The notes: a model not told the origin generated them from the letters alone. 32,020 nucleotides of DNA from Myxococcota bacterium (GCA_049322255.1 JBMORE010000032.1:1-32020), one strand, 5' to 3'; counted from the stretch's first letter, positions 7,473 through 29,895 are shown. A program made the numbers and translations.

Positions 7473-8710
7473 ACCACTTTCGGTACCGGGGGCGGGCGCT
7501 GTACGCCGAGGGCGTGCCGCTTTCGCGCATCGCTCGCGAGGTGGGCACCCCGACCTACGTCTACTCCACCGCCACCTTACGCAGGCACATACGGGTGCTC
7601 GACGCGGCCTTCGCTGGGGTGCCGCACCTGCTTTGCTACTCGGTGAAGGCGAGCTCCAACCTGGCGCTCCTGCGGCTCTTGGCAAAGGAGGGCGCGGGCT
7701 TCGACATCGTCTCCGGCGGCGAGCTGGGGCGGGTGCTGAAGGCCACGGGGGATGCCAGCGGGGTGGTCTTCTCCGGGGTGGGAAAGACCGAAGAGGAGAT
7801 GGCCGCGGCGCTGAAGGCCGGCATCTTGATGTTCAACGTGGAGAGCGCCGAAGAGCTTTCCGCTTTGGACCGCGTCGGTCGCCGTCTGCGTCGCCGGGCG
7901 CCCTTCTCCATTCGCGTCAACCCCGACGTCGACCCGCGCACCCACCGGCACATCGCCACCGGCCTTCGAACCTCCAAGTTCGGAGTGCCCTTCGAGGAGG
8001 CGCGTCGGCTTTATCTCGCTAGCCGGAGATGGAAGGGGGTGCGCGCCCAAGGTGTCGACTGCCACATCGGCTCGCAGCTGGTCGACGTGGCGCCGGTGCG
8101 GGCAGCGATTCGCCGGGTGGCCGATTTCTATCGCGCGCTTTCAGCGCAAGGCTTCCCGCTGTCGCACCTGGACGTCGGCGGCGGGCTGGGCATCACCTAC
8201 AAGGAGGAGCGCCCTCCCTCGGTGGAGGAGTACGCCCGCGCGGTGTTCGAACCGCTCCAAGGGCTGGGCGCCACCTTGGTGCTGGAGCCAGGAAGGGTGC
8301 TGGTGGGCAACGCCGCGGTGTTGCTCACCCGGGTGCTTTACCGGAAGCAGACCCCGGCCAAGCGCTTCGTGGTGGTGGATGCGGGGATGAACGACCTTCT
8401 CCGCCCGGCGCTGTACGAGGCGCACCACGAGCTTTTGCCGGTCCAAAAGCATGCGGGGCGCTTCGCCGCCGTCGACGTGGTCGGGCCGGTGTGCGAGTCG
8501 ACCGACGTGCTCGCGCGTGGTCGGCGTCTGGTCGAGCCCAGGCCCGGAGCGTTGTACGCGGTGATGAGCGCCGGTGCCTACGGCATGAGCATGGCGTCGA
8601 ACTACAACTCACGCCTCCGCCCGGCTGAGGTGCTGGTGGATGGAGCGAAGTACCGCGTGGTGCGTGCGCGCGAATCGCTCACCGACCTCTGGCGCGGCGA
8701 AAACCGCTGA
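7469..8710 (+). CDS. lysA: diaminopimelate decarboxylase
   Basis: GTPTYVYS, YSVKA (PLP Lys), DIVSGGEL, HIGSQ, DVGGGLG, EPGR, GPVCESTD, GAYGMSMASNYNSR. Confidence 0.96.
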   Translation: MNHFRYRGRALYAEGVPLSRIAREVGTPTYVYSTATLRRHIRVLDAAFAGVPHLLCYSVKASSNLALLRLLAKEGAGFDIVSGGELGRVLKATGDASGVVFSGVGKTEEEMAAALKAGILMFNVESAEELSALDRVGRRLRRRAPFSIRVNPDVDPRTHRHIATGLRTSKFGVPFEEARRLYLASRRWKGVRAQGVDCHIGSQLVDVAPVRAAIRRVADFYRALSAQGFPLSHLDVGGGLGITYKEERPPSVEEYARAVFEPLQGLGATLVLEPGRVLVGNAAVLLTRVLYRKQTPAKRFVVVDAGMNDLLRPALYEAHHELLPVQKHAGRFAAVDVVGPVCESTDVLARGRRLVEPRPGALYAVMSAGAYGMSMASNYNSRLRPAEVLVDGAKYRVVRARESLTDLWRGENR

Positions 8711-8754
8711 AGGCACACCTTGCCGTCTTGGTCATGCTTAGCTAATTTTGGGGC

Positions 8755-8988
8755 ATGCGCCAGGTCAACGTTCACGAAGCCAAGACGCAGCTCTCGCGCC
8801 TGCTTGAAGTCGTCGAGGCGGGCGAGCGTGTGGTCATCGCGCGCGCCGGTCAACCGGTGGCCGTGCTGACGCCTTATAAGGTGGTGGTGCGCAAGCGGCG
8901 GCTGGGGCTGTTTGCCGGGCAGGCGCGCATTCACCCCGACTTCGACGAACTGCCACCAGACATCGCGTCGACGCTCGGTGTCACCTGA
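8755..8988 (+). CDS. Phd/YefM-family antitoxin
   Basis: MRQVNVHEAKTQLSRLLEVVEAGERVVIARAGQPVA; directly upstream of a PIN toxin. Confidence 0.92.
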   Translation: MRQVNVHEAKTQLSRLLEVVEAGERVVIARAGQPVAVLTPYKVVVRKRRLGLFAGQARIHPDFDELPPDIASTLGVT

Positions 8989-9378
8989 ATGAAGCTGTTG
9001 CTCGACACGCATGCGCTGCTGTGGAGCGCCAGCGACCCCGAAAATTTGTCAGCGGACGCACGAGAGATGCTCGAAGACGGCACCAACGAAGTGCTCGTCA
9101 GCACCGTGTCCGCGTGGGAAATCGCCATCAAGCAGTCGATTGGCAAGCTCGAGCTGCCCAAGCCCGCCGAGCAGTGGCTGCCCGAGGTGTTGCGGCGAAC
9201 GGGCTTCGAGGTCGCTGAACTGGGGCTTTCCGCCGCGCTGCGTGTCCGCGGCTTGCCGTGGCACCACCGCGATCCCTTCGATCGGTTGCTCATCGCTCAT
9301 GCCCTTGAAGACGGTTACACGTTGGTGACGCGCGACGGCGTCTTCGCAGACTACGGCGTGCCGGTGCTCGATGCCTGA
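8989..9378 (+). CDS. vapC: PIN-domain (VapC) toxin
   Basis: MKLLLDTHALLW, S.VSAWEIAIK, HRDPFDRLLIA, LVTRD. Confidence 0.93.
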   Translation: MKLLLDTHALLWSASDPENLSADAREMLEDGTNEVLVSTVSAWEIAIKQSIGKLELPKPAEQWLPEVLRRTGFEVAELGLSAALRVRGLPWHHRDPFDRLLIAHALEDGYTLVTRDGVFADYGVPVLDA

Positions 9379-16274: not shown

Positions 16275-16309
16275 CGCTGGCGAGCCCGCTGCACTACGTT
16301 GTGGTGCAA

Positions 16310-16594
16310 ATGAAGAACGAAGTGTACTCGTGGAGGGTTTCGACTGGGCTGAAGAAGGAGCTCGAGGACGAGGCGCGCCGCGAAGGGCTTTCTCTGGCGG
16401 AGCTTCTCGAGAGGTTGGCCAGAGAGGGTCTCGAGGCGGCGCGCGGTGAAAGAGTTGGAGAAGTGGACGAGCAGCAGAGGCTGCAGAGGTCGGCTCTGCG
16501 GGCATTCGGCCTGTTGGCCGGTGGGGACCCCAGAAGAGCCGAGAGGGCCAAGGAGACTTTGCGGAAGAAGCTGAAGGCCAAGCGTGCCGGGTAG
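16310..16594 (+). CDS. putative ribbon-helix-helix/CopG-like antitoxin
   Basis: ATG 16310: MKNEVYSWRVSTGLKKELEDEARREGLSLAELLERL; 3' end overlaps the GTG (16584) of the PIN toxin. Confidence 0.75.
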   Translation: MKNEVYSWRVSTGLKKELEDEARREGLSLAELLERLAREGLEAARGERVGEVDEQQRLQRSALRAFGLLAGGDPRRAERAKETLRKKLKAKRAG

Positions 16595-16851
16595 TGCTCT
16601 GCTCGATACCGGGGCGTTGCTGGCNNNNNNNNNNNNNNNNNNNNNNNNNNNNNNNNNNNNNNNNNNNNNNNNNNNNNNNNNNNNNNNNNNNNNNNNNNNN
16701 NNNNNNNNNNNNNNNNNNNNNNNNGCGGGCATTCGGCCTGTTGGCCGGTGGGGACCCCAGAAGAGCCGAGAGGGCCAAGGAGACTTTGCGGAAGAAGCTG
16801 AAGGCCAAGCGTGCCGGGTAGTGCTCTGCTCGATACCGGGGCGTTGCTGGC
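16498..16851. other. scaffold gap (100 N, 16625-16724) flanked by an exact 127-bp duplication; likely assembly artefact
   Basis: 16498-16624 is identical to 16725-16851. Confidence 0.9.
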
Positions 16852-17242
16852 GCTTCTGGACCGGGATGATCGCTGGCATCAGCCGTGCGTGGCGGCGTTC
16901 GAGACGCTCCGGCTTCCGGTCATCACGACCATCGCCGTGCTCACCGAGTTGTTCCATCTATTGGGCGACGGGGCTCGCGAGCACTCGGCCGCCTGGCAGC
17001 TTTTGCGCTCGGGCGCGGTGAGGGTTGCGCCCATCTCCGACGAGGACCTGCCCGCGCTGGAAACGTTAATGATGCGCTACCGCGACCGGCCGATGGATTT
17101 GGCCGATGCCACTTTGGTGCACCTTGCCCAGCGGGAGTCGCTGTCGACCATCCTCACCGTCGACAACGACGACTTCGAGAGCTACCGCATCGGCGCGAAG
17201 CGACGCTTCCGCGTGCTGCCGGGCCGAATCGGCCGCTCGTAG
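16811..17242 (+). CDS. vapC: PIN-domain (VapC) toxin
   Basis: ALLDTGALLALLD.DD.WH, VLTE.FHLL, Y.D.PMDLADATLV, ILTVD..DF..YR. Confidence 0.9.
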   Translation: MPGSALLDTGALLALLDRDDRWHQPCVAAFETLRLPVITTIAVLTELFHLLGDGAREHSAAWQLLRSGAVRVAPISDEDLPALETLMMRYRDRPMDLADATLVHLAQRESLSTILTVDNDDFESYRIGAKRRFRVLPGRIGRS

Positions 17243-17287: not shown

Positions 17288-19564
17288 TCAGTTGATGGCG
17301 CCGTTGCTGGTGACTCCCGTCTTGATCTGAAGCACGTCGGCTTCGATCGTCACGCTGTCGGGCTGGCAGAGCGTGAAATCGGTAGGCGCAGCGCCAGTCA
17401 CCGACCCAGAAGCGACGGGGCGGCGCCAGTCATAGAAAAGCACGCGCCAGTGGCAGATCGGGCTGCCAGCGGCGGTGCAGGCCTGAGAGGTAGTCGAGTC
17501 AAGCAATCTACGCTCCATGCCGAACCCGTAGCCATCCAGCAAGTTGGTGTTGCTGATGGCGACGGTGCCCTTGGTCGCCGTGTGCCTGATGGCGAAGCTC
17601 GTGCCTGCAGCCTGCGGGCGGTTCAAGTTGAGGTCTCCAAACGTAGCGGAAAGGCCCACGCTGGTGCCCTTGCCCAAACCGCCAGTGCAAACCATTCCAC
17701 CGTCGGGCAGGGGGGAGCAGCACGGGGTGGAGAAGGGGTTGGGCTGAATGAAGCTGTTGGGCAGGCCGGTGGTGATGGGCCTGTCGCTGTATAGGATGCG
17801 GGTCTCCGTCCAGATGGTGGTGTTGTTGTCCCAAATGCCGTTGGGCGGAGTCCACTGATTATCTTGCGGAGCTTCGTCGATGTAGAGCTCCCCGGGGTCG
17901 AAGACGCCGTTGTCATTGGAGTCGACGAAGGGCTCGCCTTGGTCGATGAACCGCTCGTTCGCGTCACGGACTCCGTTCGTGTTGTCGTCGAAGTAGTGCT
18001 CTTCGCCTCGAACGAAGGCGATGACCGTCACCAGCGCATCGCGAGGGTTGCGGGTGAGCGCCCCAGCGGCAACAGACGGTTCGGCCAGGCGGGTGCTGGG
18101 CCACTGCGCCGGATTGGCGGGCAGTGGGGGAACGTCCACCGGGGGCCACACGCCGATGGTGCTGAACACGACGGTGCCTGTCCCCTCATCGGTGTTGTTT
18201 CCCGTGGGATCGAATTTCTTCGTCGCGATCGACTGTGGAATGGCGCCGGCTTCGGTTCGGAAGAAGACCGAGGTGCCGGTCCCGACTGGGTTGTTGCTTC
18301 GATCCACCAGCTTCACGTTGCAATTGACGTTGAATGCCAAAGGAGGCTGGGGACTGGCATAGGCGGCCACGTTGACAGGGCCACACTGAAGAGTGAAACC
18401 CTCGTTTGCGGGCTTCGCGCCTCGAATGCCGATGGTTTGACTGTCCGCTTCGACGAGCCCGGTGATGACCACGGCGTGAACGTTGATGGCACCGGTCCCC
18501 GTTCCCGCGGAGACGTTGACCGTCACGCGTCCCTGAGTATCGGTGATTCCAGTGGGTGTCACCGTGGCTCCGGCAGGAGGATTGGCGATGGAGAACCTCA
18601 CGCTGACTCCGGGGGCCGGTCGATTGCTCGAGTCCACCACTTCGAAAGTCACCTGGGCTTGCTCGTTGAAGCCAGAGCCTTTGATTCCCATGACGTTGCA
18701 GTCGATGCCGTTGCACTTTGTCGAAATCCAACGGATTTGCTGCACCCGCAAGACCTCCACCGAGACGCTGCTGGTGGCGCCGCTCGGGTCGTGCTTGCCG
18801 ACCAGAGTGGTCGTGCCTGGAACCCCCGTTTCGCGGAATTGAACCACCGCGGTACCCAAGGGCCCCGTGCGCTCGACGAGCGGGCTCATCGGGGTCGTTC
18901 CGCCGTCGAGGAAAGTAAAGCCGCCCAGGCCGCTCGTGAATTCGATGTCTTGGTCGGCGATGGGGCCTCCGTCGTTCGTGCGCAAAGTGGCAGTGACATT
19001 TGCGAAGTCGCCCACGTCGAGGAAGATTCGCTGCCGCGACGCGGACAGAGTGAGAACGATCCCGCCGTCGCCAGAGACGCCCGAGTCGCTCGTCACGGTG
19101 CCGCCTCCTCCATCGGTAGTGCCCCCGTCGAAGGCTTCGCCGCCGTCGCCGCCGTCTCCACCACCGCCGCCTCCGGTTCCCACGGTGAGGGAAGTAAAGT
19201 TGGTTACCCTGGTCCCCTCGGCGTCCCATTCGGCGGTAATTCGAACAGAACCGGAGCACCGGGAGTTGGCAGCAACGGCACAACTGAATTGCGTTGTTGC
19301 CTTGCCGGAGCCATCCAGCGTCGCGCTCGTGCTGGTGAACGAGCCCGCGGTCGCGCTGAAAGTGACGGTGCCGCTCCCGAGAGCGCCGCTGGCGGTGAGC
19401 GCCTCGACCGAGATGGTGGAGGTCTCGCCTTGATCGTCGATCTGCCTCGGAGAGGCGGAGATCGACAGCACGGCCAAGCCCGAAGGAGGCGGTGGGCTGC
19501 ACGCGACGTAGGCCCCGGCGAAGACTGCGGCCGCGACCACAGCGAAACGAGTCAGACGCAACAT
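17288..19564 (-). CDS. surface lipoprotein with invasin/Big_1-like Ig domains and DxNxNG Ca-binding-like repeats
   Basis: Start ATG 19564 (MLRLTRFAVVAAAVFAGAYVAC); V.D....P..GV.V.F and TD..G.V.V patterns; FDDNTNG/FVDSNDNG repeats; Gly/DGG linker. Confidence 0.7.
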   Translation of the reverse strand: MLRLTRFAVVAAAVFAGAYVACSPPPPSGLAVLSISASPRQIDDQGETSTISVEALTASGALGSGTVTFSATAGSFTSTSATLDGSGKATTQFSCAVAANSRCSGSVRITAEWDAEGTRVTNFTSLTVGTGGGGGGDGGDGGEAFDGGTTDGGGGTVTSDSGVSGDGGIVLTLSASRQRIFLDVGDFANVTATLRTNDGGPIADQDIEFTSGLGGFTFLDGGTTPMSPLVERTGPLGTAVVQFRETGVPGTTTLVGKHDPSGATSSVSVEVLRVQQIRWISTKCNGIDCNVMGIKGSGFNEQAQVTFEVVDSSNRPAPGVSVRFSIANPPAGATVTPTGITDTQGRVTVNVSAGTGTGAINVHAVVITGLVEADSQTIGIRGAKPANEGFTLQCGPVNVAAYASPQPPLAFNVNCNVKLVDRSNNPVGTGTSVFFRTEAGAIPQSIATKKFDPTGNNTDEGTGTVVFSTIGVWPPVDVPPLPANPAQWPSTRLAEPSVAAGALTRNPRDALVTVIAFVRGEEHYFDDNTNGVRDANERFIDQGEPFVDSNDNGVFDPGELYIDEAPQDNQWTPPNGIWDNNTTIWTETRILYSDRPITTGLPNSFIQPNPFSTPCCSPLPDGGMVCTGGLGKGTSVGLSATFGDLNLNRPQAAGTSFAIRHTATKGTVAISNTNLLDGYGFGMERRLLDSTTSQACTAAGSPICHWRVLFYDWRRPVASGSVTGAAPTDFTLCQPDSVTIEADVLQIKTGVTSNGAIN

Positions 19565-19762
19565 GGTTGCCCCTCTTTGCGAATTGGCGGGGCCGAGTAT
19601 TCCGGGTCGATCCCTCTGCGTCAAACCTCTCGCTTCTTGGAGCAACCGACGGCGGCGAAGCACCTCCGCCCGGCGCATTTCGGTTGCGCCTTCCTGCGGT
19701 GGCGCGTAGATCGCCCGCCCGGCGCATCGCGTCATCGTTCAACATCGAACAGGAGCGCGCTC

Positions 19763-21727: not shown

Positions 21728-22024
21728 ATGGCTTTGGAGCTCAGCGAGGTGCCGAGGGTGCACCCCGAGACAGGGGTGCAGCGCGTCGGAGGGCGTCTGA
21801 TGGCCGCCAGCCCCGATGACCACTTGCACAGCTTCGAGGACGAGGAGGGGGCGGTCTCGGAGGTCGCCGAGCGCATCGTCGAGCTGTGCGACGGCTCGCG
21901 CAGCTTGGAGCAGATCGTCGACGTGTTGTGCGAGGAGTTCGAGGTCGAGCGCGGTGTGTGCACGACCGACACCCTCGCGTTTGTCGAGTTGTTGGTCGAA
22001 AGGCGCATTCTGGTCGTGGGCTGA
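21728..22024 (+). CDS. stand-alone PqqD-family protein / RiPP recognition element (RRE)
   Basis: VAERIVELCDGSRSLEQIVDVLCEEFEVERGVCTTDTLAFVELLVERRIL matches the PqqD helical pattern; start could also be 21659. Confidence 0.88.
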   Translation: MALELSEVPRVHPETGVQRVGGRLMAASPDDHLHSFEDEEGAVSEVAERIVELCDGSRSLEQIVDVLCEEFEVERGVCTTDTLAFVELLVERRILVVG

Positions 22025-22056: not shown

Positions 22057-25000
22057 ATGGTGCGAAGCGGATCGAAGCTGTGGTTGGGCGCGGTGACGGT
22101 GGTGATGGTCGTGGCCGGGTGCGATTGCACTCCGCGGCCGCCCGTCGAGCGCAGCCTCTTCTGTTCCTTCATCACTCCCACCGACGGGCAGCAGGTCGAT
22201 ACCACCGTCGACGTGAAGGTGCAGGTAAACGACCAGGACGGGAATCTGGTGGAGATCGACCGGGCGATTCTCGAGGTGCGGCTCGCCGGGGCAACCGACT
22301 TCACCCCCGGCCCGCAGCCAACCTTGGAGACCGGGGTGGCCACGTTCGCTGGTACCCAGCTCACCCCCGGGGTGAATCAGCTCAGGGTGACGGCCGGAGA
22401 GGTGGGCACGGTGCTGACCTGCAACCCGCGGAGCATCGCGGTGAACGTGGCGGCGCTGGGGCCCGAGATTCTGGCGGTCGAGTTCCAAGGTGACGTGAAC
22501 CAGGACGGGAAGCTGAACGCGGCGGAGCTGCCGAGCTTCCCGGTGGTGGCGATCGTGAGGACGCAGGCGATTGCGGACGGCGAGGAGATTGTCATCCGCG
22601 ATGCCTTCGGGGCCAAGGCCACCAACCCCGGCATCGTCTCGGGGAACCAGGCGACGGTGACGCTCGACCTTCTGGGGACCCAGCCGGAAGCGACGTACAC
22701 CCTCACCGCCGAGGCTCCGAACGTGACCGGCGTCCCCAGCCGGCAGGTGACGCTGGAGATCGACCAGGTGGCGCCGGGGGTGAGCATCTCCTGCCCTTCG
22801 AAGAATCTCCTCGGGCTGAGCGATGACGCGAACACCACGGTCGAGCCTTTCCAGCTGCGCGTGTGCGCGCAGGTGCCGAGCGACGTCAGCCAGGTTAGTT
22901 TCCAGCTGGGGACGCAGCTGTTCCCCTGTACTGGAACGTGCATCGTCTCCGGAGCGGCGGTGCACGTATTCGATGTGCAAAAGCCCGGCACCACCACTCC
23001 CCAGCTCAAGGTCACCGCATTCGACGCCGCCGGCAATACCGGCGAAGCGACCCAGCAGTTGACGCTCGACTTCGATCCACCGGTCATCAACGTCACCGCT
23101 CCGCTGGCCAGCGGAGGTCCGTACAATACCTTCAATCTGACGGTCACCGCGGCGGTCACTGGCGCGGAGGGGCAGCAGGTTGTCTTCTCGCGCGAGACCG
23201 GAGGCACCGAGGTTTCTTTGGGCGTTGCCCAGGTGAGCAATGGCACCGCCTCCATCGGCGCATCGTTCGTCAACGGGACGCACCGAGTCATCGGCAGAGT
23301 GGTGGATGTGGCGGGCAACCCGGCGGTGGACGACGAAACGGGCGTCGTCGTGAACAGCACGCAGTGCAGCGTGCTCTTCACCCGTCCAGCCACCAAGCCG
23401 GCCCTCTTGACGAAGAGCGATGACGAGGTGCTCACGACCCCCAACGACATCGACTACACGATTCGGGTAAACAGCGCGAATTGCCCCAACACCGCGGTGA
23501 CCTTGTTCCGCGACAACAACTTGGTATCCGCCGTCACGACCAACGGGAGCGGGAACGCCCAGTGGCTCGTCACCGTCCCGGCCGGCAGCTCCACCTACCG
23601 CGTGGACGTCTCCAATGGCGTCGGACAGCCACCAACCTCCGACACCGTCGTCATCACCGCCGATTTGAGTACGCCTTCCATCACCGCGCCGCGAAACAAC
23701 GAGCGCTTGAATGTCGCTCAAGATGGCCAGCGTCAGACGCCTGGGGTGCAGCGGTTGCTCACCTATTCCGCCAACGTCCCCACGGGTGGACGCGTAGCCA
23801 TCTGCAGCAATCAGACCCCCGTGGGAGCGACGGCCTGCCCCGATGGCGCATCTGGTTGGTGGGAGCTCGCCGCGAGCGCGCAGCCGAGCGAGCCGGCCTT
23901 CACCTTCCCCGAAGGGGTGTACGAGATCAAGCCGGTCGTGGTGGCGGTGGGAGGTGGCACGAACGTAGGTGGCGCGGTCCACCTCATCGTGGACAGCGTT
24001 CGGCCAACGGTGACCGCGGTGAGCATCGTGGGCGATCTCAACAACGACCGAAAGCTAAACAGCGCCGAGCTCGCGGCGATCGGCGGAGCGCCGCAGTTGA
24101 CGATCACCACCAGCGAGGAGGTGCAGTCGATCGTCGTTCGCGAGCAGGGAACGACCACCACGTTCAATACCGACACCAGCGGCACCTCAAACCGCACCCG
24201 CACGGTGACGCTGGACAAGAACCTCACCACCACCGAGCAGGATTACTCGCTCGAGATTGTGCTGAGCGATCTCAACTTCAACGCCAACGTGTTGGGAACG
24301 CCGACCACCTTCGACCCACTCGACGCGCTGGCGAAGCTGGCGCCGATTCGGATCGACCGCCAGGCCCCGGCTTGCAGCATCACGGCTCCAGCGAAGACGC
24401 AGCTTGGCGTCGCAGACGATGCGGACAGCGCTGCGGGCTATCAGCTGCGCGTCGGCGTCGCTACTTCTCTCGACGTGGCAAACGGCGTCGCCCTCACGTT
24501 GTCTGGAGCCGCGACACAGACAGCAACGGCTTCAGCCAGCGGCGGGAGTGCGACCCACGACTTCACCGTTTCCAGTACCGGCACCTTGGTCTACAACCTC
24601 GCGGCGACTTGCGTTGATGAAGCGGGCAACTCGACCACCGCAACGCCGCTGAACAACATCACCGTCGACAACGAGGTGCCCACCTGTTCGCTGACCTCGC
24701 CGTCTTCTGCCGGGGGCCCCTATGGCACCTTCTCCATCGCCACCAACGTCACTGTGGGAGGGCTGGGAACCGACGGACTGCCCGTGCGCATCTACAGCAA
24801 AGTCGGCGCCGCCGATGAACAGCAGGTGGGTACGCTCACCGTGTCCGGCGGGACGGCCTCCGGTCAAGTGACCTATCCCAATGGGACTCAGACCGTCCGT
24901 GCCGAGGCAGAAGACCTCGCCGGCAACAGGTGCACCAGTTCGCAAGCCAACGTGGTCGTCAATGGCGTGGGTTGTAGCTTGACCGTCTCCAAGCCGCAGA

Positions 25001-27366
25001 CCAACGGCTTCGTCAACAAGGCCGACGACACCAACTCGGCCACGACCACCACCGCTGAGTTCTCGGTCACCGGGAACAGCTCGAACTGCAACTCCGGCCA
25101 GGTGGTGAAGGTCTACCGCCTCGGGCCTCGTACCGAGATCGGCTCCAGCACCGTGGGGGCCACGGGTGCCTTCGCGGTGCCCATTGCCCTGGTCGAGGGG
25201 ACGCACCAGCTGGAAGTGGAGATCGACAACGGTGCAGGAGTGCTCAACTCCGATTTCCCTAGCAACGTCACTGTGGATGTAACGGATCCTACCGTTGGTA
25301 CGGTGACTCCCACCGGGGCGAGTCTCTTCTTCGTGGCCTCCACCAACGCGAATCTCGGCATCAACTCAGCCTACGTCGCCGATGGGACCCCGGGCGCTCC
25401 AGCCGACTTCAATGCGGTGGTGAATGATGTCGCCAACGCCGTCGGAGGAACCGTTCAAGTGACCTATGGCGGGACCGTCGTCGGCGGGCCGGCTTCGGTG
25501 ACCACCAGTCCGCAGAGTTTCACCATTCCAGTCACCCTGACACACAACACCAGCAACACCTTCGTGATCGAGGTGCGTGATCAGGCGGGTAACCTCGTTC
25601 GACCGACGAACGCGGCTGCACAAGTCGATGTCGTTGCTCCAGCGCCGCCCTCGGTGACCCAGACGGTGACGAACGCCCGTCGTGGGTTGGTGGGCCTGAC
25701 ATGGTCACCGGTCTACGACGACGGGAACGATTCCTCGTCGGGAGCGCACGCTGGGTACGATTTGCGGTGGACGACCAATGCTCTCAAAGATGCGACGGGA
25801 GGCGAAACAGCCGGGATGACCGCGGCCGACTATCTCGACTCCACTAAGGTGCAGACCGAATCGCTCATCGCCTGGTCGTCTTCGAGCACCAGCTACACGC
25901 TGACCATGCCGCCGCTGGCGACCTACTTCATCGCGGTGCGAGCGAAGGACGAGGTGGGAAACTATTCGGCGTTCGTTGCGCCAACGGCCCTGAATAACCG
26001 CGGCACTCAGCACACCTTCACCAACCCCATGGCGACGGCGAACCAGAGCTACGGCTCCACGTTGGCGGCGGGAGGCAGCCTGAACAACGATGCGATGGAC
26101 GACCTGGTGGTCGCGGCATCGAACGCGGCGCCAGCCGGCGCTGTGTACGTGTACTTTGGGGGCGCTCTCGTCTCGCAGACCACCTGCACCGCCCCCGCAT
26201 GCCAGAAGATCGAGCCTTACGACGCGGCGGCAGCCGGGGCGGGGAGCAGCTTCGGCGCGGATGTCTCGGTGGGCAACGTCGGCGCGGTGGGGACGGAAAA
26301 CAAGCCCGACCTTGTAGTCGGCGCGTCGGGCTTCAATTCTTCTCAAGGTCGGGTGTTCATCTTCTACGGCACTGCATCGGCGACCACGATGGACAGCGCC
26401 AACAGCTACGTCGAGCTTCGTGGAAATGCGGGGTCGAGCTTTGGAATTGCGGCTCGAGTCATCCCTGATCTCAACAACGACGGCCTGAGCGAGATCGCGA
26501 TCGCGGCGCCCGGTGAAAGCTCGAATCGCGGAAAGGTCTACATCTTCAATGGCCGCGCGATGAGCGCCTGGACCACCGTGCAAGATCCCATCACCATGCG
26601 ACCCTACGTGCCGGTGGCGTCGGCGAACTACGTCATCGAAGGACCCCTGCCAGCGGTGAGCGGCGGAAACCAGTTTGGCCGCGAGCGGGGAGGGTACGCA
26701 GCGCTGGGGGACCTCACCGGCGATGGAGTTCCGGACTTCACTGTCCCTGACTCCAAGGGCACGGTGAACAAGCTGTTCCTCTTTTCGGGGGCGGCAGTGA
26801 CGGCCAAGCCCGCTCCGCTGACTTTGACCACCGGTGTCTCTCCCACCGCAGCGGAAGAACAGCTGCAAACGCTCAGCTTTGGATCGACGGGCGCGGCCAC
26901 GCGGCTGTCCTTCGGCACGAGCGCTGTCGGAAATCTCAACGTGCTTGGCGGTGCCGCAAAGGATCTCGTCATCGCCCACGCCAACGACGCCACCGTGCAC
27001 ATATTCACCGATGGTATCTCGACGGGGTTCCCCTCCACGCCTGCCCTGACCATCCAGGGCACCATTCCATACCCCTTCGGCCGATGGGTGGTGGCAGGTG
27101 ACTTCAATCTCGATGGGAACAACGATATTGCTGTCGGTGAGGGTGCAGCGACGGGCTCGTCGGCGTGGGTGTTCTACAACCGTGGAGGAAGCTTTGATAC
27201 CAGTGCTGGCCGCGGATTTTGGACCTCGCGCGTGTTCGGTGGCTCGGGGGCGACGTCAATGGGCACCGGATTGGTTACAGGTGATTTCGACGGCGATACG
27301 CGGGTAGATCTCGCCTTTGCCGATAGCATTACAAGTACGGGACAGGTGATCGTATGGCACCCATGA
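22057..27366 (+). CDS. giant lipoprotein adhesin: multiple Ig-like repeats, FN3-like domain and C-terminal FG-GAP/integrin-alpha-like propeller
   Basis: GGAGAAGG SD; lipobox VAGC; repeated D.AGN strands; GDVNQDGKLN/GDLNNDRKLN; LTW..VYDDG...Y.LRW...YFIAVRAKDEVGN; seven FG-GAP-like motifs. Confidence 0.85.
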   Translation: MVRSGSKLWLGAVTVVMVVAGCDCTPRPPVERSLFCSFITPTDGQQVDTTVDVKVQVNDQDGNLVEIDRAILEVRLAGATDFTPGPQPTLETGVATFAGTQLTPGVNQLRVTAGEVGTVLTCNPRSIAVNVAALGPEILAVEFQGDVNQDGKLNAAELPSFPVVAIVRTQAIADGEEIVIRDAFGAKATNPGIVSGNQATVTLDLLGTQPEATYTLTAEAPNVTGVPSRQVTLEIDQVAPGVSISCPSKNLLGLSDDANTTVEPFQLRVCAQVPSDVSQVSFQLGTQLFPCTGTCIVSGAAVHVFDVQKPGTTTPQLKVTAFDAAGNTGEATQQLTLDFDPPVINVTAPLASGGPYNTFNLTVTAAVTGAEGQQVVFSRETGGTEVSLGVAQVSNGTASIGASFVNGTHRVIGRVVDVAGNPAVDDETGVVVNSTQCSVLFTRPATKPALLTKSDDEVLTTPNDIDYTIRVNSANCPNTAVTLFRDNNLVSAVTTNGSGNAQWLVTVPAGSSTYRVDVSNGVGQPPTSDTVVITADLSTPSITAPRNNERLNVAQDGQRQTPGVQRLLTYSANVPTGGRVAICSNQTPVGATACPDGASGWWELAASAQPSEPAFTFPEGVYEIKPVVVAVGGGTNVGGAVHLIVDSVRPTVTAVSIVGDLNNDRKLNSAELAAIGGAPQLTITTSEEVQSIVVREQGTTTTFNTDTSGTSNRTRTVTLDKNLTTTEQDYSLEIVLSDLNFNANVLGTPTTFDPLDALAKLAPIRIDRQAPACSITAPAKTQLGVADDADSAAGYQLRVGVATSLDVANGVALTLSGAATQTATASASGGSATHDFTVSSTGTLVYNLAATCVDEAGNSTTATPLNNITVDNEVPTCSLTSPSSAGGPYGTFSIATNVTVGGLGTDGLPVRIYSKVGAADEQQVGTLTVSGGTASGQVTYPNGTQTVRAEAEDLAGNRCTSSQANVVVNGVGCSLTVSKPQTNGFVNKADDTNSATTTTAEFSVTGNSSNCNSGQVVKVYRLGPRTEIGSSTVGATGAFAVPIALVEGTHQLEVEIDNGAGVLNSDFPSNVTVDVTDPTVGTVTPTGASLFFVASTNANLGINSAYVADGTPGAPADFNAVVNDVANAVGGTVQVTYGGTVVGGPASVTTSPQSFTIPVTLTHNTSNTFVIEVRDQAGNLVRPTNAAAQVDVVAPAPPSVTQTVTNARRGLVGLTWSPVYDDGNDSSSGAHAGYDLRWTTNALKDATGGETAGMTAADYLDSTKVQTESLIAWSSSSTSYTLTMPPLATYFIAVRAKDEVGNYSAFVAPTALNNRGTQHTFTNPMATANQSYGSTLAAGGSLNNDAMDDLVVAASNAAPAGAVYVYFGGALVSQTTCTAPACQKIEPYDAAAAGAGSSFGADVSVGNVGAVGTENKPDLVVGASGFNSSQGRVFIFYGTASATTMDSANSYVELRGNAGSSFGIAARVIPDLNNDGLSEIAIAAPGESSNRGKVYIFNGRAMSAWTTVQDPITMRPYVPVASANYVIEGPLPAVSGGNQFGRERGGYAALGDLTGDGVPDFTVPDSKGTVNKLFLFSGAAVTAKPAPLTLTTGVSPTAAEEQLQTLSFGSTGAATRLSFGTSAVGNLNVLGGAAKDLVIAHANDATVHIFTDGISTGFPSTPALTIQGTIPYPFGRWVVAGDFNLDGNNDIAVGEGAATGSSAWVFYNRGGSFDTSAGRGFWTSRVFGGSGATSMGTGLVTGDFDGDTRVDLAFADSITSTGQVIVWHP

Positions 27367-27527
27367 GCAAGCCTCCTCCGAAGGTCAAACGCCGCTACCT
27401 TGCACCGAGTCTTCGTTCCCAGCAGATCGTAGCCCCCAATCTCCTCACGGTGACTTGTTCGGGGGCAACGCCGCTTCTCTGTCCGGATGGGGAGACGTGC
27501 GTAGCGGATCTCGGCGACTGCCCGTAG
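27363..27527 (+). CDS. putative RiPP precursor peptide (54 aa; YxxPxL leader, 4-Cys C-terminal core)
   Basis: Hand translation: MSKPPPKVKRRYLAPSLRSQQIVAPNLLTVTCSGATPLLCPDGETCVADLGDCP*; ATGA overlap with the adhesin stop; shorter than any ORF in the supplied track. Confidence 0.75.
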   Translation: MSKPPPKVKRRYLAPSLRSQQIVAPNLLTVTCSGATPLLCPDGETCVADLGDCP

Positions 27528-27541
27528 CAAGCGGTCTTGGA

Positions 27542-28285
27542 GTGGAAGTTGACCGCCAAATTCTCGAGCTCAGCTCGGCGCGATGCCATTGGCAGTCGTT
27601 TGCCAGCGTTGGAAGCCGAGACGAGCCCAGCGTCTTCGTACGCAGGACGAACAGGCTCGAGGAGAGCGAGAAACTTCCCCTGATGGGTTCGCTGGCACCT
27701 TGGGGCTTCTACACGCTCCAGGGAGACGAGCTGCTCTGCCAAATTCCAGATGACCCGTTCGCTGCGGAGTCGGTGCTGCGCATCGCCTACCATGTCGCGA
27801 CGGTACGTGCAGGAGGCTTGCTCGTTCACGCCTCAGCCATTGCGTTTGATAAGTGCGCTGTTGCTGCAGTTGGACCGAGCGGAGCGGGGAAGTCGACCTT
27901 GGCGAACCTATGCGCCTCCGCCGAAGGAAAGGGAAAGCTGCTCACCGATGAAATAGTGCAGCTTTTCCCTGAGGGGTTGTGCGCAGGCACGCCGTTTCGC
28001 TCCAACCATGAGAATGTGGGCTCGCCGGGGCTCTATCGCCTCACGTCACTGCTCCTGCTCGAGAAGGGCTCCCAAGAGCGTATCGACCCGGTCGCTTCGC
28101 ATCGAGGAATGCCCGCACTCCTCTCCCAGGTGTTCCGGTCGGAGGCGCTCGAGCTTTCCAACGCCGAGGTGCTTCGGCGGCTGGCCGATACCGTCGAAGC
28201 GTCCGGTTTGCACCGCCTGACCTTTCGCAATGATGCGGCTGTGGGACCTTTCCTGCGCCAGTGGGTGGCCACCTGTGGGAGTTAG
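27542..28285 (+). CDS. HPr-kinase-related P-loop kinase (lasso-peptide-kinase/ScmC-like)
   Basis: GGLLVHASAI...GPSGAGKSTL, LLTDE, GTPF; start uncertain (GTG 27542 chosen, frame open from 27455). Confidence 0.75.
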   Translation: MEVDRQILELSSARCHWQSFASVGSRDEPSVFVRRTNRLEESEKLPLMGSLAPWGFYTLQGDELLCQIPDDPFAAESVLRIAYHVATVRAGGLLVHASAIAFDKCAVAAVGPSGAGKSTLANLCASAEGKGKLLTDEIVQLFPEGLCAGTPFRSNHENVGSPGLYRLTSLLLLEKGSQERIDPVASHRGMPALLSQVFRSEALELSNAEVLRRLADTVEASGLHRLTFRNDAAVGPFLRQWVATCGS

Positions 28286-28985
28286 GGTCGCCGACTTCCT
28301 CGAGCAGCTGCCACTGGGTGCAACGATGTGGTTGTCGACACGGGGCACGAGCATGGCGCCCCTTCTGCGGAGCAGAGACGCCCTTCGCGTGCAAAGGTGC
28401 ATCGAGGACGAGCTTCATCGGGGCGACATCGCCATCTTGCGCCGGGAAGATGGCGCTCTCCTGGCCCACATCGTGACGGCGACCCACCCCCTTCGCACCT
28501 CGTCCTTCAGCGGCACCCCCGACGCTCCGGGGCTTCGGAGCCTGGGCAAGGCGATGGCCGTGCGGCGGAAGGGGAAGGAGCTGCCACTGCCTGCTTCGGC
28601 GCGGGTGCCCCTCTACGCGGCACACCGGGTGTGGGCCGGTGCGGCGAAGTCACCGCTGGCGCGCGCGACGCTGCGCCTTTTGCTCGAGTCCACCGCACGC
28701 TTTCGCAGGTGGCAGCTCTCCCCGCTGAGCGTTCGCTTACTTTGCGAGGCCGACCTGCCCACGCTGGCGGACTACGCTCCGGCCGGGCTGGCCGCGACGG
28801 AGGAGGAGCTCGCTCGACTCCTTCGCCCGCCCCGGCGAGCGGCGGGAGCCTTCTTGGGGAACAGGCTGGTGGGTCTCGGGTTGGCGGAGGGCGCCGCGGT
28901 ACGGCACCTCTCGACGACTTTGTGGGCCCGCGCGGTGGGGCTGGAGGCCGAGCTGCTCGAGCTTCTCGGCGCGCGCGATGGGTGA
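28275..28985 (+). CDS. S24/S26-family serine peptidase with degenerate GNAT-like C-terminal region
   Basis: RGTSMAPLL..RD...GDIAIL...LAHIV; tail VRLLCEADL...GAFLGNRLVG...LWARAVGLEAELL; GTG 28275 overlaps the kinase stop. Confidence 0.72.
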   Translation: MGVRVADFLEQLPLGATMWLSTRGTSMAPLLRSRDALRVQRCIEDELHRGDIAILRREDGALLAHIVTATHPLRTSSFSGTPDAPGLRSLGKAMAVRRKGKELPLPASARVPLYAAHRVWAGAAKSPLARATLRLLLESTARFRRWQLSPLSVRLLCEADLPTLADYAPAGLAATEEELARLLRPPRRAAGAFLGNRLVGLGLAEGAAVRHLSTTLWARAVGLEAELLELLGARDG

Positions 28986-29895
28986 GGAACTTTCCCGCGG
29001 CCCCGGCCTCAAGGCCGACGCGCTCTTGGTGCTCATCACCGCCTTCTGGGGCGTCACCTTCGTGGTGGTGAAGGACGCGCTGAACGACGCCGACGCTTTC
29101 AGCTTCCTGGCCATGCGTTTCGCGGTGGGCGGCATCGCCGCTTCGGCCATCGCGCGGCGCACCCTTTTCGACCGTGGCGCGTGGCACGCCGGGCTTTTGC
29201 TCGGGGTGCTCCTCTTCGTCGGGTATGCGTTTCAGACCTTCGGGCTCTCCCTCACCACGCCCTCCCGCTCGGCCTTCCTCACCGGGCTCGCGGTGGTGCT
29301 GGTGCCCTTCGCCGCGCTGCTCGTCTTTCGGCGAATGCCGAAGGCGCCGGCGCTCCTGGGGGTTGCGCTGGCGGCGGGAGGGCTGTACCTGCTCACCGGC
29401 GGCCTTTCCGGCGGTGGCACGCGCCTGGGCGATGGGCTGACGGTGGGCTGCGCCATCGCCTTCTGCTTTCACATCGTTCTCACCGAGCGCTTCGCTCCCG
29501 GTCGGCCGGTGGTGGCGATGGTCGCCTGGCAGCTTTGGGTCACCGCGCTCCTCTCCGCGCTCTGCCTACCTTTCTCCCAGGCTCGCATCCATTGGACGGG
29601 CTCGCTCCTCTCGGCCATTCTCGCCTGCGGCATTTTTGCCTCCGCCCTCGCCATCTCTTTGCAGACTTGGGCCCAACGGCGCACCACCGCGGTGCGCGCG
29701 GCGCTCATCTTCGCGCTCGAGCCGGTGTTTGCAGCGCTCCTCTCCGTCGGCTTGGGGAGGGAAACGCTCGGGCTGGTCGAGGGGATGGGAGGCGTGCTCA
29801 TTGTGCTGGGAGTGGTTTGCGCGGAGGTGGGTGGGGTTTTGGTGAGGAGAGTACGCCCCTCATCCCCGCCCCTCTCCCAGGGGGAGAGGGTGTAA
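28978..29895 (+). CDS. EamA/DMT family transporter
   Basis: WGVTFVVVKDAL, FQTFGL..TTPS.SAFLTGL.VV.VP, QTWAQ, ALIFALEPVFA; about 10 TM segments. Confidence 0.92.
   Translation: MGEELSRGPGLKADALLVLITAFWGVTFVVVKDALNDADAFSFLAMRFAVGGIAASAIARRTLFDRGAWHAGLLLGVLLFVGYAFQTFGLSLTTPSRSAFLTGLAVVLVPFAALLVFRRMPKAPALLGVALAAGGLYLLTGGLSGGGTRLGDGLTVGCAIAFCFHIVLTERFAPGRPVVAMVAWQLWVTALLSALCLPFSQARIHWTGSLLSAILACGIFASALAISLQTWAQRRTTAVRAALIFALEPVFAALLSVGLGRETLGLVEGMGGVLIVLGVVCAEVGGVLVRRVRPSSPPLSQGERV
29857..29890 (-). repeat. BoxC/triplex-type repeat, copy 7, forming the last codons of the EamA gene
   Basis: CCCTCATCC-CCGC-CCCTCTCCC-AGG-GGGAGAGGG; translated as ..PSSPPLSQGERV*. Confidence 0.8.

Follow-up and report, generated by a model that had tools for sequence, protein, structure and literature searches.

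A stretch of DNA of 32,020 nucleotides from Myxococcota bacterium (GCA_049322255.1 JBMORE010000032.1:1-32020), hereafter the window, contains a small open reading frame (ORF) at 27354..27527 (+) which is almost certainly a real gene, and which likely encodes the precursor of a peptide that is made by the ribosome and modified after translation (RiPP), processed in the manner of the linear polyphosphorylated peptides (LPPs) of Bacillota such as Paenibacillus alginolyticus (PMC13381572). The gene lies in a cassette comprising, in order on the plus strand, a stand-alone RiPP recognition element (RRE), a giant predicted Ig/FG-GAP lipoprotein (the adhesin), the precursor peptide, an HprK-like kinase and an S24/S26 peptidase with a GNAT tail. 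Of 20 long loci selected through their kinase, 18 show the order RRE, adhesin, peptide, kinase, and the remaining two end at contig edges. Across Myxococcota, the enzyme logic of LPPs and of paeninodin is tied to a single giant surface protein, and this holds for each of two paralogous cassettes. What is new is that the peptide follows the adhesin stop even where the kinase has moved, that adhesin, core type and kinase are exchanged as a block, and that a second paralogous cassette holds another propeller protein.

The precursor gene and its conservation

Translation of 27363-27527 (+) gives exactly the 54-amino-acid peptide of the first-pass annotation, and the ATG at 27363 shares bases with the TGA of the long adhesin gene (ATGA), as had been claimed. 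The ORF finder gives a version of 57 amino acids from an in-frame ATG at 27354, nine bases 5' of 27363, and this ATG is probably the true start; the reading frame proposed earlier thus stands, with its start moved upstream. The start at 27354 is favoured because a AGGTG, complementary to the 3' end of 16S rRNA, is spaced 5 nucleotides from it and 14 nucleotides from ATG 27363, because it requires the valine codon GTA in the adhesin, where GTA is rare (10 of 200 valine codons), and because of a base bias in relatives whose adhesin has a tryptophan three codons from the end: the base preceding this codon creates an ATG in 13 of 17 loci without another ATG, and in just 4 of 35 loci already having one. 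From either start the peptide would be translationally coupled to the adhesin, a suggestion of the first-pass annotation with which the family data are consistent. A scan of the sequence for promoters and terminators revealed nothing exceeding chance.

A total of 208 genomes of the family were scanned, with a peptide profile built from 24 peptides; one unpublished genome (G162) enters the genome tallies only. The peptide profile matches 98 and the RRE profile 103 of the 208 genomes, with both present in 91, the peptide only in 7, the RRE only in 12 and neither in 98; no p-value is attached to these counts, as related genomes are not independent. In 72 of the 91 genomes with both, the peptide shares the strand of the RRE and is located 2.9-7.0 kilobases 3' of it; in 18 of the other 19 the two matches are on different contigs. 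Among 84 distinct adhesin 3' ends with sufficient downstream DNA, an intact peptide homologue comes next in 83; most of these ends were retrieved via a peptide match, and 26 (the window included) via the kinase or RRE, all 26 of which carry the peptide. The remaining end, at locus L154, has a peptide gene seemingly frameshifted right after the motif tryptophan (assembly error or pseudogene). Stand-alone precursor copies, away from any RRE, kinase or adhesin, occur at L111:7309-7539 and L118:6955-7167.

The leader is under purifying selection, with a pN/pS of 0.29 (18 disjoint pairs, uncorrected) and differences at codon positions 1, 2 and 3 numbering 44, 36 and 90, and the core is variable. 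The lack of stops in the peptide frame of these pairs is a circular observation and does not count as evidence. A conserved leader with a variable core is the pattern that the alignment check proposed earlier was meant to look for, Y and P having been search criteria. Homologues are annotated merely as hypothetical proteins (e.g. WP_177241412.1), also in the cultured named carriers Stigmatella, Hyalangium and Citreicoccus and, for the second cassette described below, Corallococcus; the relatives bearing titles are Myxococcaceae. No Pfam model fits the peptides and no NCBIfam model matches any of the 24, while the ESM Atlas gives solely unnamed clusters scoring below 0.9, which are at most a lead.

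That the ORF is not a separate gene, being a chance ORF, the 5' end of the kinase or a frameshift extension of the adhesin, is exceedingly improbable. Its GC content at third codon positions is only 0.67, and a kinase-frame ORF overlaps it from 27455, which would fit such a reading; the ORF is nevertheless conserved family-wide, and in named genomes its homologues have been annotated as genes for hypothetical proteins. The frame of the peptide relative to the adhesin varies (46, 21 and 15 loci across the three frames), and an extension or fusion of the adhesin by frameshift was rejected on this ground. In the frame from 27455, homology to other kinases sets in only around residue 21-31, and no more than 15 of 51 loci keep this frame open for at least 73 nucleotides into the peptide; the start at 27455 was thus rejected as an ORF-finder extension, and GTG 27542 is the likely start of the kinase. 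The first-pass annotation had named loss of the ORF, together with conservation of the kinase frame from 27455, as the outcome that would speak against its proposal, and the opposite was found.

Leader, predicted cleavage site and core

The anatomy of the peptide was counted in 81 distinct homologues, whose search pattern included [YW]xxP (x represents any amino acid) and which have Y/W (81/81) and P (81/81) accordingly. In the window the motif is YLAPSL (27396..27413, +), predicted to bind the RRE. Position 6 (+5) of the motif is V, I, L or M in 78 of the 81 peptides and position 8 (+7) Ser or Thr in 79, and the N-terminus is basic, with a mean of 3.4 Lys/Arg among the eight residues preceding the motif, giving the leader pattern of a basic stretch followed by [YW]xxPx[VIL]x[ST]. 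A Leu-[Phe/Leu] doublet, mostly followed by Ala or Thr, is present in 75 of the 81 peptides. With the six peptides lacking it excluded, Ser or Thr occurs within six residues past the doublet in all 75, where the composition of the remaining core would predict 43% (44 of the 75 if only Ser is counted), and 57 of them share one post-doublet position for it, being Thr in 28 and Ser in 29. The window peptide has Thr at this position.

By analogy with F-E-T in LppA, Leu-Leu-Thr (27441..27449, +) is predicted to form the end of the leader (P3-P2-P1), leaving a putative core of 25 amino acids (27450..27524, +) with Thr34 and Ser36 as candidate phospho-acceptors and Cys at positions 35, 43, 49 and 56 (57-amino-acid numbering). 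This register makes a cut behind LLT more likely than one at the site LLTVT/C guessed in the first-pass annotation, which is two residues further on. The number of Cys is even in 78 of the 81 peptides (none in 1, two in 32, four in 13, six in 28 and eight in 4), which suggests disulfides in the core. The bipartite design with a YxxP leader and an internal kinase target, both put forward earlier, fit the data of the 81 peptides and also the precedent of the LPPs (PMC13381572).

Recognition element, kinase and peptidase

The RRE (21728..22024, +) is a stand-alone member of the PqqD family (PF05402, 47.4 bits; cut-off 23.4). Its profile matches RREs of lasso peptides, PQQ and LPPs, the best solved structure being the lasso RRE TbiB1, while LppB (9x8z) is matched at E 0.0011. 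Prediction of the RRE-peptide complex, a check named in the first-pass annotation, gave a score of 0.51 against 0.08 for the best control, with contacts agreeing by at least 94% between runs and a partner pLDDT (predicted local confidence) of 53. Weak passes of this kind were seen for 18 among 157 solved complexes, and the two mismatches that passed, out of 215, were also of this kind; likeness to solved RRE-leader complexes may account for the pass. The score beats its controls yet only weakly points to binding.

The kinase (27542..28285, +) was detected in 37 of 61 relatives and is an HprK-like P-loop enzyme, in which a His, the Walker A motif GxxGxGKST and an Asp-Glu pair are invariant in 23 of 23 sequences; its model (pLDDT 94.8) matches PEPCK and HprK/P structures. 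The next gene (28230..28985, +) encodes an S24/S26-fold peptidase with a GNAT domain, matching UmuD/LexA-type S24/S26 domains plus GNAT, and is probably the processing enzyme. Its Ser41/His80/Asp98 are well conserved, with Ser in 18 of 19 sequences (Cys in one) and His and Asp in 19 of 19. The GNAT domain is cut short in the window copy, intact in many relatives and above the Pfam cut-off in four of them. Kinase and peptidase are fused as one ORF in two loci (L031 and L049).

Comparison with known systems

According to PMC13381572, the LPP cluster of P. alginolyticus (lppA/K/B/S/D/N) comprises an RRE, the signal-peptidase-like LppS (catalytic residues S29/H68/D93), the HprK-like LppK, which accepts Ser only and rejects Thr, an NTP transferase and an exporter. 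The LPP leader YxxPxVLxHQxIxFET is cut after Thr and Ser3 is polyphosphorylated; LPPs are called restricted to Bacillota, and the biological roles of LPPs and paeninodin are stated there as unknown. The cassette in the window shares with this system a discrete RRE (above the PF05402 cut-off and matching LppB 9x8z), a [Y/W]xxP leader with a variable core and Ser/Thr near the core start, an HprK-like kinase, a signal-peptidase-like Ser/His/Asp leader peptidase (predicted here from fold and conserved residues) and the lack of a macrolactam cyclase. The Ser-His spacing of 39 residues equals that of LppS S29/H68. In contrast, the leader consensus here is YxxPxVRSExI...L[FL][AT], of which only YxxPx[VIL] is shared, and Ser/Thr comes one position later; the second cassette matches the LPP register, not the letters of the LPP leader. 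Neither an NTP transferase (none between RRE and EamA) nor an MsbA-like exporter is in the cassette, the core is Cys-paired, Thr is often at the acceptor position and the peptidase is fused to GNAT. The host belongs to Myxococcota and not Bacillota, and the cassette is fixed behind a giant propeller protein, whereas LPPs lie in capsule loci. Since the three core enzymes and the Ser-His spacing are the same, the cassette likely works in an LPP-like way, yet it is not an LPP member because of its different leader consensus and the absence of the transferase and exporter.

No myxobacteria were found by term searches in the main text of PMC13381572; in its supplement a few peptidases (at least three) are from Myxococcota, fall outside the LPP cluster and have not been given a precursor. 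Term searches in PMC12710340 and PMC7470986 found no passage on HPr, kinase or S24/S26, and a description of the myxobacterial cassette was not found in search listings of the literature accessible without subscription.

Paeninodin-type lasso peptides also have a discrete PqqD-type RRE, a [Y/W]xxPxL leader and an HprK-like kinase. The window peptide differs from them in having no C-terminal Ser and, for plausible cuts, no Asp/Glu at ring position 7-9. In its own genome (99.6% complete) the lasso B2 cysteine leader peptidase (PF13471) was not found, and for a full-length macrolactam cyclase only short N-terminal PF00733 matches elsewhere were found; a lasso cluster was rejected on these grounds. 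The NCBIfam systems HPr-rel-A (TIGR04352), SynChlorMet and GeoRSP likewise combine a PqqD chaperone with an HprK-related kinase, and radical SAM genes accompany distant relatives of the window cassette, but the scores are far below the cut-offs (kinase 23.6 bits against 200 for TIGR04352; RRE 25.7 against 100).

Linkage to the giant surface lipoprotein

The adhesin (22057..27366, +; also given from 21886) is predicted to be a lipoprotein of 1769 amino acids; it carries the lipobox VAGC, Ig-like repeats and, at the C-terminus, an FG-GAP propeller region, and the starts of the peptide overlap its final codons. At loci L108, L109, L110 and others of genera g6, g12 and g36, the peptide is still found behind the adhesin stop, with the kinase kilobases off or unlinked. 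The giant surface protein is thus the tightest genomic partner of the peptide; the first-pass annotation had correctly placed the two side by side, but had seen the adhesin as a mere neighbour.

In 27 genomes of seven genera, the RRE, ETF, EamA and metallo-beta-lactamase-fold (MBL) genes follow the genus, while adhesin, kinase and core type travel together. Core types were assigned by eye from the core and the adhesin end, and later checked with cores alone. Propeller identity is 45% within a genus across different core types versus 60% across genera with the same core type, and core similarity correlates with the propeller (rho 0.55) and the kinase (0.60), not with the RRE (0.11) or EamA (0.07). 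By the approximately unbiased test, genus g16 as a single clade is rejected for the propeller (p-AU 0.0006) and the kinase (0.0004). The flanking MBL gene is compatible with that clade, and rejects core type c as a single clade (p-AU 0.0002). Adhesin, core type and kinase are therefore exchanged between genera as one block, in which the RRE, following the genus, does not take part. Most of the cassette has been lost from two genera.

The genome encodes exactly two PqqD genes and two kinases of this type. The second cassette (G000:C182:41330-45306), between hisS and miaA, contains an RRE, a small lipoprotein, a secreted propeller protein of 709 amino acids which is unrelated to the window adhesin, a YxxP peptide (~44387-44521) and an HprK-like kinase. 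This copy has no peptidase gene, while the copy at L123 has its own S24/S26 gene. The leader of the second cassette puts Ser at motif position 19 after A-L-A, which is the LPP register. A homologue of its kinase is present in 88 of the 208 family genomes, among them each of the 21 from the genus to which Corallococcus belongs.

Among 20 kinase-chosen loci of other families, giant protein, peptide and kinase follow each other in 12, two of them with the large gene broken across frames. A radical SAM gene comes directly after the kinase in 7 of those 12 (L278, L280, L282, L284, L285, L289 and L291, all from other Myxococcota families); the YydG epimerase is the best match in three, all below the cut-off, and the cores often lack paired Cys. 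Loci L276, L287 and L288 possess RRE, radical SAM, peptide and kinase without a giant protein and have Gly/Cys-rich cores; the single precursor of this type that was scanned has no NCBIfam match.

Proposed pathway and alternative explanations

In the proposed pathway, the upstream RRE would bind the YxxP leader, the HprK-like kinase would likely phosphorylate Ser/Thr at the core start (Thr34 or Ser36), and the S24/S26 peptidase would likely cut the leader off after LLT, the sites and the order of the steps being taken from LPPs. The product would be a short, probably disulfide-bonded phosphopeptide cooperating with the giant FG-GAP lipoprotein, a functional partnership suggested by genomic linkage only, the chances of which are about even. 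In relatives the GNAT domain, judging from its fusion to the peptidase, may N-acetylate the freed core, an activity probably lost in the window copy.

Several observations weigh against this pathway. LppK takes Ser only, but 28 of 75 peptides, and the window peptide, have Thr at the conserved position, and the near-invariant leader Ser/Thr (79/81) could be an alternative kinase site. An exporter and an NTP transferase are absent from the cassette (genes from RRE to EamA and neighbours), and no exporter would account for the exit of a probably oxidised peptide from the cytoplasm. Kinase and peptidase are apart from the peptide in genera g6, g12 and g36, and no more than 55 of 82 loci have the kinase within 170 nucleotides of the peptide. 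In two genera without this RRE, adhesin, peptide and kinase, all 7 genomes inspected retain the S26-GNAT gene between etfA and EamA (L185-L189, L191 and L192), 4 of them with visible Ser and His; the gene is so not exclusively tied to the peptide. Block exchange, lastly, shows a swapped unit and not binding, and linkage alone can explain the co-transfer of the adhesin.

The joint exchange of peptide, kinase and surface protein between species raises the possibility that the product and the surface protein function together in cell recognition. In its furthest form, which is rather doubtful, this idea would make the cassette part of a phylum-wide myxobacterial recognition module, in which the phosphorylated, disulfide-closed core is a private ligand or tag that binds its cognate beta-propeller or is displayed on it. 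Adhesin, core and kinase would then be identity alleles that are swapped together, and the RRE that reads the leader would stay generic. If peptide and propeller do form cognate pairs, social bacteria would have a cell-recognition system built on a RiPP; the linkage to a surface protein points this RiPP class to a concrete, testable function. It is quite possible, though short of even, that an LPP-like RiPP made here is, in genomic terms, just a passenger of the adhesin and serves as a diffusible signal or as an antagonist, its gene being co-transcribed without the product acting on the surface protein. The stand-alone peptide genes at L111 and L118, the loci without a giant protein (L276, L287 and L288) and the fact that linkage accounts for co-transfer agree with this; that kinase and peptidase change place without the peptide leaving its position after the adhesin stop, and that the same order recurs with an unrelated propeller in the second cassette and in 12 of the 20 kinase-chosen loci of other families, does not.

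The missing dedicated exporter, together with the leader Ser/Thr nearly invariant in 79 of 81 peptides, the strict translational coupling and a peptidase sometimes unlinked or kept alone, would suit a peptide that is never exported and serves the biogenesis of the surface protein inside the cell, as adaptor, regulator or metal-binding chaperone, with the leader Ser/Thr as a switch for RRE and kinase. Such a role is unlikely, as Cys counts of 2, 4, 6 and 8 fit disulfides better than a single metal site, and as a conserved Ser/Thr right after the predicted cut, the covariation of core and kinase and the precedent of LPPs all speak against it. Still less probable is a relic of an older radical SAM RiPP cassette which lost its main maturase and has no functional product in this family: the leader is under purifying selection, the catalytic residues are invariant, 83 of 84 peptides are intact and block exchange is active, against which stand the radical SAM gene right after the kinase in seven distant loci, the truncated GNAT domain of the window and the near loss of the cassette in two genera.

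Neighbouring genes

Further 3' of the peptidase are a conserved EamA transporter (28978..29895, +) and then a metallo-beta-lactamase-fold nuclease; in relatives a Na/Ca exchanger is also among the cassette neighbours. EamA was rejected as a dedicated exporter, being kept where the cassette is lost and following the genus tree, and is probably not dedicated to the cassette. On another contig of the same genome, two PF14907 (NTP_transf_5) genes in a polysaccharide locus (G000:C104:9794-12309) could act in trans on phosphopeptides. A run of N (X in translation) at ~16620-16720 of the window is directly upstream of the 16811 ORF. At 16294-17242 and ~8710-9378 (+) the translations, inspected by eye, look like two PIN-type toxin-antitoxin pairs. 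The window also encodes an 815-amino-acid predicted lipoprotein with Big_1 Ig domains (17288-19735, -), which is kept upstream of etfAB in several relatives.

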